Source: Candidatus Sericytochromatia bacterium | GTDB taxonomy: Bacteria > Cyanobacteriota > Sericytochromatia > UBA7694 | Direction of reading: 5' to 3' | DNA length: 64,000 bases | NCBI GenBank assembly: GCA_018780035.1 | Contig: JADMKE010000021.1 | Span: 27,844 to 91,843 of the forward strand | Part shown: piece by piece, positions 50,289 to 51,910 of the stretch | Position numbering within the stretch: position 1 is the stretch's first letter | Layout of the letters: each line of letters begins with the position of its first letter | Program-made: the position numbers and the translations under genes | The notes under the pieces: model-generated | What the model saw: the letters and a program-made list of their open reading frames with translations, nothing else | Told to the model about the DNA's origin: nothing | Database searches by the model: none

Positions 50289-50804
50289 ATGCAAGTCAAC
50301 CGTCCTGTAACCCCTAATTCACAAGCTCCGGTTTCTGAAGTACCAAGAAACCAGCCACCAAAAGCCCCAGAGAAAGAGCCCAATGTCCCCTCTTCCTCGA
50401 CCACCCCATCCGCGCCTACGGATACTGCCAACGTAAAACCTGTTGCTACAGATGGAATGACCGCAGATGCCTCAGGTAAAATCCAAGAAGCCAAACTGGG
50501 CAGCGAAATTGGCAACGTCCTCGGTGACAATGAAAACGACGATATTGGCCAACTTAAAGATGCCATGCATAAAGCAGCTGAAGAGTTTGGTCCCGAAGTC
50601 GGCGAAAAAATGTTCAACAAGCTCTTTATCGACCCCAAAAGTTCAGCAGAGTACGACAAGGGTCTGGCTGAAGCCGCCAAAAAATACAAAGAACTCAAAA
50701 AATCTGATCCCGCAGCTGCAGAAACATTCAAAAAAGACATGGCCTGCAAAATGTGCGAAAAGATCAACAAAACCAAAAATGGTGAAGACGATCCCGGTTG
50801 TTAA
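50289..50804 (+). CDS. low-complexity Lys/Glu/Pro-rich protein ending in Cys-containing tail (candidate radical-SAM substrate/precursor)
   Basis: 171 aa. The C-terminus reads ...KKDMACKMCEKINKTKNGEDDPGC. The stop overlaps the start of the radical-SAM gene. Confidence 0.4.
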   Translation: MQVNRPVTPNSQAPVSEVPRNQPPKAPEKEPNVPSSSTTPSAPTDTANVKPVATDGMTADASGKIQEAKLGSEIGNVLGDNENDDIGQLKDAMHKAAEEFGPEVGEKMFNKLFIDPKSSAEYDKGLAEAAKKYKELKKSDPAAAETFKKDMACKMCEKINKTKNGEDDPGC

Positions 50805-51910
50805 GCTCCCCACAGGGGCTTAATACCATGTCTCTCAATCTCATGGAGCAGGTTCTACCCAACGAAGTCAAACCTGCTCCACGAAAAACATTTGTTATTC
50901 AATACGAAGTCAACGATGCATGTAATCTGCGCTGCAGCCATTGTTACCATGGTCGCAAGGTCATCAAAGAAAGCGCAGTGGGTCTAGAACGGCTTTTTCA
51001 GGATCTGGAAGCTTTGCACAGCCATCTGGGCAAAACATATCGGATCCTGATTCGTCTTTCTGGGGGAGAGGTCTTTCTGCGCAAAGATCTGATGGAAATG
51101 CTCTCAAAGATCTTGGCTGAGGGTTATGCCACAGTCATGCTCACCAATGGCACCTTGGTCACCCCCGAAAATGCCTTGGCAGTCTCGGTTCGGGCTGTCG
51201 ATCTGGTTCAAATCAGCCTCGATGGCCCCAATGCCGAAGTCCATGATGCCATCCGTGGCAAAGGGCAATTCGTCAAGGCCCTAGAAGGTATTCGTCAATT
51301 GCAGGCCGAAGACCAACCGGTATCAGTCTCCTATACCCTAATGCAGGGCCACAACGATACCCAGGCCCATTTCCAAGCCATGTTTGAACTCGCACGCCAC
51401 GAAAAGTTTGAGAAAGTCAATTTTTCGCGCATTTTCCCCCAGGGAGATGCCCACAACTTACCCGCATACGCTTACGCCGATGGGCTTCGTTTCAAAGAAA
51501 TGCTCGAAATGCTGCTGGACACAGCAGCCCTTTTCCCCGATGTCAAAGTCGTGATCAAAGATCCCCTGATCAACAACTTAGAGCGCACTTTTCCAGACAA
51601 TGTCAAAACAGATGTCTGTTGTTATATTCGCAAAGACTATATTTCGGTGACTGCCAATGGCGACGTCTTCGCTTGCCGCAAACTCGCTAAACCTGTGGGC
51701 AGTTTGCTCGACGATACCCTGCTGAATATCTGGCAAAACAATACCCTCTTACAAGAATTGGACAATCGGCGCCAATTTATGGCAGGCAAATGCCGCACCT
51801 GCCCGATCAATGACCAATGCAAAGGGGGTTGTTTGGCGGCCTCTTATGGCCTCACCCAAACGCTCTTTGTGCCCGATCCGGCTTGTTGGCGCGAAGAAGT
51901 TCCAGTATAA
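50798..51910 (+). CDS. radical SAM enzyme with C-terminal SPASM domain (peptide/protein-modifying maturase-like; AnSME-like N-terminus)
   Basis: CNLRCSHCYH is a CxxxCxxC motif. C-terminal CRTCPINDQCKGGCLAAS is an auxiliary Fe-S cluster motif. Confidence 0.85.
   Translation: MLSSPQGLNTMSLNLMEQVLPNEVKPAPRKTFVIQYEVNDACNLRCSHCYHGRKVIKESAVGLERLFQDLEALHSHLGKTYRILIRLSGGEVFLRKDLMEMLSKILAEGYATVMLTNGTLVTPENALAVSVRAVDLVQISLDGPNAEVHDAIRGKGQFVKALEGIRQLQAEDQPVSVSYTLMQGHNDTQAHFQAMFELARHEKFEKVNFSRIFPQGDAHNLPAYAYADGLRFKEMLEMLLDTAALFPDVKVVIKDPLINNLERTFPDNVKTDVCCYIRKDYISVTANGDVFACRKLAKPVGSLLDDTLLNIWQNNTLLQELDNRRQFMAGKCRTCPINDQCKGGCLAASYGLTQTLFVPDPACWREEVPV

Follow-up and report, generated by a model that had tools for sequence, protein, structure and literature searches.

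A protein ending in cysteine, a radical SAM/SPASM enzyme, and a zincin-type protein form a conserved three-gene module in Sericytochromatia

The window analyzed here (the whole 64,000-nucleotide stretch, positions 27,844 to 91,843 of contig JADMKE010000021.1, from Candidatus Sericytochromatia bacterium) carries a module of three genes on its forward strand. The first encodes a protein of about 1000 amino acids (aa) with a zincin-type metallopeptidase domain, the second a protein that is 140-342 aa long among relatives and ends in Cys (usually Pro-Gly-Cys), and the third a minimal radical S-adenosylmethionine (rSAM)/SPASM enzyme that lacks the recognition element (RRE) of RiPPs (peptides synthesized ribosomally and modified after translation). 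Comparison of the sequences suggests an undescribed system for the maturation of a protein or cofactor. On balance, we favor the terminal Cys of the small protein as the target of the rSAM enzyme within this three-gene unit, and we hold much less confidence in any specific chemistry on that residue.

An earlier note on this DNA, made from the letters alone, had proposed an undescribed substrate-enzyme pair with an unusually long partner, and had suggested (among other checks) a comparison with hidden Markov models of enzyme families and a survey of genomic neighborhoods. Both were run, and at the level of sequence they support the proposal. The enzyme reaches the cut-off of no curated rSAM family. 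In all 18 loci that carry an rSAM gene of this clade (the window, the seven GTDB genomes L001-L007, and ten contigs, L081/L173 and L164-L172), the open reading frame (ORF) just upstream of that gene, and in the same orientation, encodes a hydrophilic protein of the above size range that ends in Cys. The note had also named two outcomes that would speak against the pair, namely orthologs lying next to sulfatase genes and a small ORF that is not conserved or not translated. None of the 18 neighborhoods contains a sulfatase gene, and the small ORF, present in every one of them, evolves under purifying selection. In the literature, we found no description of a terminal-Cys/rSAM/zincin module.

The small protein and its terminal cysteine

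The 171-aa ORF of the window is a real gene, as the note had taken it to be, with an ATG start, a Shine-Dalgarno sequence, and the signature of purifying selection. The ratio of nonsynonymous to synonymous substitution rates (dN/dS) is 0.13-0.20 against two relatives (~89% DNA identity), and it differs along the gene, being 0.3-0.45 over the first 54 codons and 0.08 over the C-terminal 117. An overlapping ORF in the +2 frame (50467-50823) has a dN/dS of 3-5, and thus it is the small ORF that is real and translated, the other being a shadow ORF. An antisense ORF (50285-50776) was likewise rejected as a shadow ORF. The protein is 100% identical to NCBI entry MBT9546890.1, a hypothetical protein from a Candidatus Sericytochromatia metagenome-assembled genome (MAG).

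Relatives of the small protein are hard to collect by similarity. A word-indexed search yielded 6-8 clusters only, and a profile search run exhaustively over 1.84 billion proteins yielded eight representatives, all ending in PGC. The family members that it added to those of the 18 loci, four in number, all have a DDPGC end. Because sequence searches barely widen the family, positional homology (the ORF upstream of the rSAM gene) was used instead. The small proteins of the related loci are 13-24% identical to that of the window, and their alignment has one invariant column, that of the terminal Cys. The tails found across the loci are DDPGC, DNPGC, GGPGC, GLPGC, DCSGC, xxxxGC, GRGGC, DGPGC, SDDGC, TDKNC, DKDDC, and TMDHC. 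In 10 loci, the terminal Cys is the only Cys of the protein. The three Cys that the note had pointed to in the last 20 residues are indeed there in the window, but only the terminal one is conserved; the motif MACKMC, which is the source of the other two, is present in the closest relatives only. Both the Cys codon (TGT or TGC) and the stop codon that follows it (TAA, TAG, or TGA) vary from locus to locus, which indicates that selection acts on the amino acid. As background, Cys makes up 0.8% of residues, Cys is the last residue of ~3% of long ORFs in the same DNA, and upstream ORFs ending in Cys are sporadic among the ~150 distant rSAM/SPASM loci in the matches listed.

An AlphaFold2 (AF2) model of the small protein is of low confidence, with a predicted local distance difference test score (pLDDT) of 53.7, too poor to justify a fold search. 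In this model, a helical stretch (residues 82-163) and a short tail follow the N-terminal ~80 residues, which are disordered and rich in Pro, Gln, and Thr. The earlier description of a disordered protein without structure therefore fits residues 1-80 and does not fit the predicted helical part. No signal peptide was detected in the small protein or in the large zincin protein, and the small partner proteins share no conserved (C/S)xPxR motif. A reading of their N-termini as FlgM-like or as secretion signals was considered and dropped; the resemblance is compositional only and has no Pfam support.

The rSAM/SPASM enzyme

The next gene encodes a radical SAM protein with a CxxxCxxC motif and a SPASM region, in agreement with the earlier description. 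The protein belongs to Pfam families Radical_SAM (PF04055, 77.8 bits vs. a cut-off of 29.5) and SPASM (PF13186, 32.9 bits vs. 21.5, E = 7.7e-8). The CxxxCxxC motif, the full seven-Cys SPASM motif, an extra Cys (C264), and G278 are invariant in 28 homologs. In an alignment of the window enzyme with 27 homologs, conservation starts ~20 residues in, and close relatives are called from the position of ATG 50828 (MSLNLMEQ...), which has an AGGGG Shine-Dalgarno sequence 9 nt upstream. Judging from this alignment, the start is most likely ATG 50828 and not the overlapping TTG 50798. The overlap of stop and start codons that was first described, and the translational coupling read from it, depend on TTG 50798, from which the ORF as listed overlaps the small gene's stop by 7 nt, and are given up here, as the orthologs align from about ATG 50828, leaving a 23-nt gap that contains a hairpin (see below).

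The enzyme lies outside the curated families. No NCBIfam model reaches its cut-off with any of the 28 orthologs; the scores are 137 bits for WgkB (cut-off 650), 130 for ScmE (400), 125 for GeoRSP (400), 116.4 for AhbD (500), 112.3 for NirJ2 (500), 111.9 for MftC (TIGR03962; 265), 96.6 for SbtM (TIGR04082; 350), 83.4 for StsB (625), and 73.8 for PapB (340). For AhbD/NirJ, the best E-value of any ortholog (3.8e-44) still goes with a score far below the cut-off, so that membership is not supported. Nor is the enzyme an anSME by this measure, given that this family is absent from the best 25 NCBIfam matches and that the likeness is at fold level only. Assignment to MftC fails on the score and on the lack of MftA- or MftB-like ORFs at the module, and assignment to SbtM fails on the score and on the partners, most but not all of which have Gly-Cys. 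The rSAM core begins at about residue 20 with no N-terminal extension, and no gene of the module or its neighbors has a PqqD-like Pfam match; that is, no RRE was detected.

By sequence, the closest solved structures are SkfB (E = 1.5e-8), CteB (2.3e-7), and PqqE. The AF2 model of the enzyme (pLDDT 84.6) matches rSAM structures, and Foldseek places anSMEcpe first (template modeling [TM] score of 0.69 in both directions), followed by SkfB, CteB, SuiB, and PqqE. PADLOC returned generic viperin-core matches only for the enzyme and no match for the other two proteins, which makes a known defense system unlikely.

A hairpin between the small gene and the rSAM gene

The stop codon of the small gene and ATG 50828 are 23 nt apart, and the RNA here is predicted to form a hairpin that pairs the stop-codon region with the AGGGG Shine-Dalgarno sequence of the rSAM gene. 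No dinucleotide-shuffled sequence was as stable (0/200). The stem is kept in L001 and L002, and the loop reads ACA, AAA, and UUA in the window, L001, and L002, respectively. Between the stop of the small gene and the rSAM start as called, the distance varies across the loci from -26 to +104 nt. Where it is at least 23 nt, a stable stem-loop lies directly after the stop in 8-9 of 11 loci (z of -2.1 to -5.5), in several cases with a U-tract after the stem. Control spacers (between the zincin and small genes in three loci, and between gpsA and the next gene) gave z values of -1.3 to +1.3. A scan for promoter and terminator consensus sequences did not rise above shuffled expectation (it missed the window hairpin because this hairpin has no T-run), and the window gave no hits in Rfam or tRNA scans.

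In RiPP and pqq operons, a hairpin between the precursor and enzyme genes typically sets a high ratio of precursor to enzyme transcript. The presence of a hairpin after the small gene thus supports a substrate-enzyme relationship and argues against translational coupling. We consider the window hairpin to be a probable attenuator that gives a high ratio of small protein to enzyme, and attenuation to be more likely than translational coupling between the two genes. A second hairpin (51908-51947, AUCCCC...GGGGAU, -12.6 kcal/mol, z = -1.86) occupies the 34 nt that separate the rSAM stop from the start of gpsA and may be a weak terminator or processing site.

Conservation of the module

Identity of the rSAM enzyme across the related loci is 36-98%. 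Its ortholog group comprises ~31 clusters with identities of 56-94%, every one of them derived from MAGs of Sericytochromatia or of the Blackallbacteria type, and beyond this group identity falls to 39%, 36%, and ~32%. In many Sericytochromatia, the module is embedded in a syntenic block made up of genes for a CHASE2 adenylate cyclase, the zincin, the small protein, the rSAM enzyme, GpsA, a LolA-like protein, and a GNAT protein. The trio is also kept where the flanks differ (L164, L167, L171, and L081). In L164 and L167, it is present without the cyclase or gpsA, and in L171 the downstream flank consists of a major facilitator superfamily (MFS) gene and rplM/rpsI.

The most distant copy of the module (L081/L173, rSAM 36% identical) is found in a 5.18-Mb genome of 36.7% GC. 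The gene order there is three tandem zincin paralogs, a 140-aa protein ending ...SSDDGC, the rSAM gene, and a YcaO-TPR gene (7165-8817 of L081, equivalent to 11667-13319 of L173), directly 3' of the rSAM gene and followed by a YkuD transpeptidase gene. The YcaO-TPR gene is absent from the Sericytochromatia loci. As YcaO enzymes act on Cys or backbone amides, this one may belong to the pathway in L081/L173.

None of the 18 neighborhoods contains tetrapyrrole genes (ahb, nir), and no exporter, immunity gene, or RRE is found consistently within the module across these loci. A contig scan with the rSAM alignment listed only matches of 24-32% identity, and these were used as a negative control. The positive control for the neighborhood survey was the recovery, among the distant matches listed, of three mycofactocin loci (L097, L099, and L116). 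Upstream of the rSAM match, these encode an MftA ending ...IDGICGVY and an MftB ending ...LEKGFLREQ(S/P)IC.

The zincin-type partner

It had been stated earlier that no leader peptidase is encoded alongside the pair. This does not stand, as a conserved gene upstream of the small gene encodes a protein that scores above the cut-off for Peptidase_Mx1 (PF15890; 28.6 bits for the whole protein and 32.2 and 36.3 for isolated domains, vs. 25.6) and whose family matches Protein Data Bank (PDB) entry 4l7a. Weaker Pfam matches are to Peptidase_M90 and ATLF. Residues H468, E469, H472, D527, A529, and E530 are invariant in 14 sequences, and at the level of sequence the protein is predicted to be a zincin. 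The match to 4l7a was obtained with a profile of the 14 sequences (E = 0.0012), in which EDFAE aligns to ...ED(I)AE; a search of PDB sequences with the whole single protein gave no match. Members of the family are ~840-1300 aa long with the domain in mid-protein, and their N-terminal region has a dozen invariant residues, including F68, F118, W198, N208, M264, and LN323-324.

The zincin and the terminal-Cys protein occur together. In a tblastn search of 173 loci, the zincin domain was found in exactly the 12 loci that have both a terminal-Cys ORF and enough upstream DNA, and in none of the ~155 distant rSAM loci among the matches listed. As judged from these comparisons, the upstream zincin gene is the third part of the conserved unit. 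The three tandem paralogs of L173 (2365-9915) encode proteins of 791, 837, and 839 aa that are 40-44% mutually identical, and each has HExxH and EDIAE. They also share an N-terminal motif, ...F(R/K)TxxEAExAAR...GSExIVKExxxYKLY. We found no description of an association between a zincin and an rSAM enzyme in the literature.

Table 1. Positions of the module's genes and motifs in the window
Feature	Position	Strand	Details
Large 972-aa partner protein with central zincin-type metallopeptidase domain	47225..50143	+	Start TTG 47225 or ATG 47231
HELGH zinc-binding motif, residues 470-474 of the large protein	48632..48646	+	H, E, and H invariant in 14 homologs
EDFAE motif, residues 528-532, presumed third zinc ligand of a gluzincin	48806..48820	+	D, A, and E invariant in 14 homologs
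Shine-Dalgarno sequence AGGAG of the small gene	50272..50276	+	12 nt before the ATG; read from the sequence
Gene for the small hydrophilic 171-aa protein	50289..50804	+	ATG ORF; ends ...MACKMCEKINKTKNGEDDPGC before the stop, i.e., Pro-Gly-Cys
RNA hairpin over the small-gene stop and the rSAM AGGGG Shine-Dalgarno sequence	50796..50827	+	Minimum free energy -16.6 kcal/mol, z = -3.79
Cys171 codon TGT, C-terminal residue, proposed modification site	50799..50801	+	Sole invariant column of family alignments
rSAM/SPASM enzyme, 360 aa	50828..51910	+	ATG 50828; alternative TTG 50798; PF04055 and PF13186
CNLRCSHC = CxxxCxxC (C32, C36, C39), motif of the SAM-cleaving [4Fe-4S] cluster	50921..50944	+	Invariant in 28 sequences
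SPASM auxiliary-cluster region	51617..51886	+	C264, C265-x12-G278-x4-C283 ... C322-x2-C325-x5-C331-x3-C335 ... C353

A proposed mechanism and the points that weigh against it

From these genes and their conservation, we infer which protein is the substrate, where and how it is modified, and what the zincin does, as follows. The small protein would have the role of dedicated substrate or scaffold, made in excess of the enzyme if the hairpin after its stop attenuates the rSAM gene at the level of transcription or translation. The rSAM/SPASM enzyme would cleave SAM reductively and abstract hydrogen from the terminal Cys, probably at C-beta (a site proposed by likeness to anSME and SbtM), giving a thioaldehyde-type intermediate. 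Because Cys is the last residue in every lineage, whatever precedes it, its free alpha-carboxylate seems to matter, and with this carboxylate in place three outcomes are plausible: decarboxylation of the terminal Cys to an enethiol, cyclization onto the preceding carbonyl to give a thio-oxazole, as SbtM does, or hydrolysis to formylglycine, the product of anSME. The decarboxylation outcome is known for LanD-type flavoenzymes acting on a C-terminal Cys and for MftC acting on a C-terminal Tyr. The zincin could then trim or release the modified C-terminal piece. In a general sense, the gene content (a precursor-like gene, an rSAM gene, and a zincin gene) is compatible with a RiPP.

An extension of this scheme, which we offer as speculative and rather unlikely, is that the module builds a small molecule derived from Cys on the C-terminus of the scaffold (a redox cofactor, a thiol, or a metal binder of the thio-oxazole type), which is released by the zincin and constitutes a core trait of Sericytochromatia. 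In that event, the rSAM/SPASM enzyme would probably oxidize the terminal Cys and decarboxylate or cyclize it. By analogy, the logic would be that of the mycofactocin, pyrroloquinoline quinone (PQQ), or pearlin scaffold-peptide pathways, with enzymes and a precursor class that are new.

Several findings weigh against the terminal Cys as the target, or against parts of the proposed mechanism. The whole block is syntenic in many Sericytochromatia, and thus inheritance, not selection, accounts for some of the adjacency, which by itself would be weak evidence there. A 39%-identical rSAM enzyme (L082/L083, from a 26%-GC organism) has no terminal-Cys ORF and no such partners, although it could be a member of another subfamily. 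The likeness of fold to anSME does not exceed what any minimal SPASM enzyme would be expected to show (17%-18% identity), and a strict analogy to the Gly-Cys substrates of SbtM is weakened by three loci in which Asn, Asp, or His precedes the Cys. Classical RiPP precursors do not resemble a protein of 140-342 aa that lacks an RRE partner. Finally, the three zincin paralogs that accompany one small protein in L081 would be odd for a mere processing peptidase.

Alternative explanations

The same three paralogs can be taken to suggest that the zincins are the payload, and this is part of the argument for a quite different arrangement centered on the zincin. Here, the small protein would be an inhibitor or chaperone acting in trans, whose terminal Cys thiolate (perhaps together with the carboxylate) caps the catalytic zinc in the manner of a cysteine switch, and the rSAM enzyme would destroy the thiol to license the protease, or would modify the zincin. 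The co-occurrence of zincin and terminal-Cys protein is perfect, and the modeled flexible tail with its terminal Cys would suit insertion into an active site. The large proteins are also nearly free of Cys: five of ten have 0-1, the window zincin has a single one that is not conserved, and the family has no conserved Cys. However, a cysteine switch does not directly explain why a SPASM enzyme should be tightly linked 3' of the small gene, with an attenuator of the substrate-enzyme type between them, and we know of no precedent for a cysteine switch controlled by an rSAM enzyme. We regard this explanation as improbable.

A still less probable explanation is that the arrangement reflects inherited synteny only, with the rSAM enzyme acting on a small molecule (in a tetrapyrrole step like those of AhbD/NirJ) or on some other protein (like anSME), and with the small ORF an unrelated, lineage-specific gene. 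It is true that NirJ2 and AhbD are among the best NCBIfam E-values across the 28 orthologs, that anSME is the top fold neighbor, and that the broad synteny of the region takes in housekeeping genes (gpsA and hpt, among others). Yet the scores are far under every curated cut-off (e.g., 112-116 vs. 500 bits), the 18 neighborhoods contain neither tetrapyrrole genes nor sulfatases, and the partners have no conserved (C/S)xPxR. Moreover, the trio is kept where the flanks have been replaced, and also with the 36%-identical homolog of the 36.7%-GC genome, and an unrelated function would leave unexplained why the terminal Cys is invariant in a protein that has diverged to 13-24% identity.

A classical secreted RiPP (e.g., a bacteriocin), in which the small protein is mostly a long leader, the last residues are the core, and the zincin is the leader peptidase, would fit the precursor-like gene before the rSAM/SPASM gene, the hairpin between them, the metallopeptidase-like gene, and the sequence-nearest solved enzymes (the peptide maturases SkfB, CteB, and PqqE), but it is similarly doubtful given that no exporter, immunity gene, or RRE recurs in the 18 loci, that neither protein has a signal peptide, that one to four residues would make up the core, and that a single-copy module conserved vertically across the class has the pattern of a core function, unlike a variable secondary metabolite.

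Other observations

Among the matches listed, distant rSAM/SPASM homologs (25-31% identity) are often preceded by genes for proteins of 130-540 aa with Gly/Cys-rich C-terminal runs (e.g., ...GGCGGCGGGGGD and ...GGGCGGGGSSSF). These loci (L022, L033, L035, L040, L041, L045, L048, L051, L056, L076, L089, L091, L093, and L124) come from Nitrospirota, Ruminococcus, Thiotrichaceae, Clostridia, and others, and they look like another recurrent arrangement of a large Cys-tailed protein with a SPASM enzyme. In two Pacearchaeota loci (L054, 7771-7977, and L075, 7758-7979), small ORFs before distant rSAM/SPASM genes end ...DACASDDGCFLD and ...DACYSDDGCFLD, respectively; the SDDGC stretch in these tails resembles the ...SSDDGC end in L081, which may be coincidence.

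Elsewhere in the window, positions 37009-41235 hold two tandem genes for S41 proteases (Ctp type, containing PDZ domains) and then a gene for a clostripain-family (C11) peptidase, upstream of genes for a NUDIX/metallo-beta-lactamase fusion and a Ser/Thr kinase with DUF7527. On the minus strand, a 303-aa ORF (3840-4751) with a His-rich start (MHQHSHHGHSHGHGHSHD...) and the end ...ACELENC looks like a metal transporter or metal-binding protein.

Significance and comparison with known systems

Enzymes of the rSAM/SPASM type with co-encoded substrates have been a productive source of chemistry, including sactionine, mycofactocin, PQQ, thio-oxazoles, and formylglycine. The strictly terminal position of the Cys suggests chemistry that proceeds via the free carboxylate, and we know of no described rSAM chemistry that uses the free carboxylate of Cys. 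With one enzyme, one substrate protein, and one invariant last residue, the module offers a clean test case. Sericytochromatia are an uncultured class, a non-photosynthetic sister lineage of cyanobacteria that is used in reasoning on cyanobacterial ancestry. Because the module is conserved across this class, what it makes may be a cofactor or a regulatory modification shared by the whole lineage, and not an accessory antibiotic.

The known systems each share some of these features. anSME oxidizes a protein-borne Cys via abstraction of the C-beta hydrogen. Like the enzyme described here, it (PDB 4K36-4K39) combines an rSAM core with a full SPASM region in ~360-370 aa and has no RRE, and it is the top Foldseek neighbor (TM 0.69). 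It differs in that the two share only 17%-18% identity and that here there is no sulfatase neighbor and no (C/S)xPxR, the proposed target being the terminal residue of a dedicated small protein.

In mycofactocin biosynthesis, the rSAM/SPASM enzyme MftC (~350 aa) oxidatively decarboxylates the C-terminal residue of a precursor whose conserved part is the C-terminus, and a peptidase frees the modified end as a cofactor. The likeness of the MftA/MftB/MftC/MftE system to the module lies in a C-terminal residue of a co-encoded protein as the (here putative) target and in the presence of a peptidase. However, the module has no MftB/RRE gene, a terminal Cys rather than Val-Tyr, a partner of 140-342 aa rather than ~30 aa, and a zincin in place of the creatininase-family MftE. 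The maturases of sactipeptides, ranthipeptides, and SCIFF peptides (SkfB, CteB, and PapB) have in common with it Cys-directed SPASM or twitch chemistry and a precursor gene upstream; their RRE is N-terminal and their targets are several internal Cys of short peptides, whereas here there is no RRE and one terminal Cys is conserved.

SbtM is a SPASM enzyme that converts a conserved Gly-Cys(Sec) into a thio(seleno)oxazole via abstraction of the C-beta hydrogen (PMC9204691). The parallel is a SPASM rSAM enzyme on a Gly-Cys motif, as most of the partners here end in Gly-Cys. In contrast to SbtM, the match covers profile positions 197-506 only and the N-terminal ~190 residues of SbtM are absent; there is also no selenocysteine, the Gly is not invariant, and the Cys is strictly terminal. 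As for the large protein, it shares the HExxH ... ED(F/I)AE arrangement with zincins of the Peptidase_Mx1, TIGR04549, MtfA (M90), and anthrax lethal-factor types, and it differs from them in having the domain in the middle of a protein of ~840-1300 aa, an extra conserved N-terminal region, and no lipoprotein signal.

An rSAM/SPASM enzyme with a co-encoded substrate is of a known kind. What makes this system distinctive is the 140-342-aa partner with its invariant terminal Cys, the lack of an RRE, and the obligate link to a ~1000-aa zincin, which is also new.

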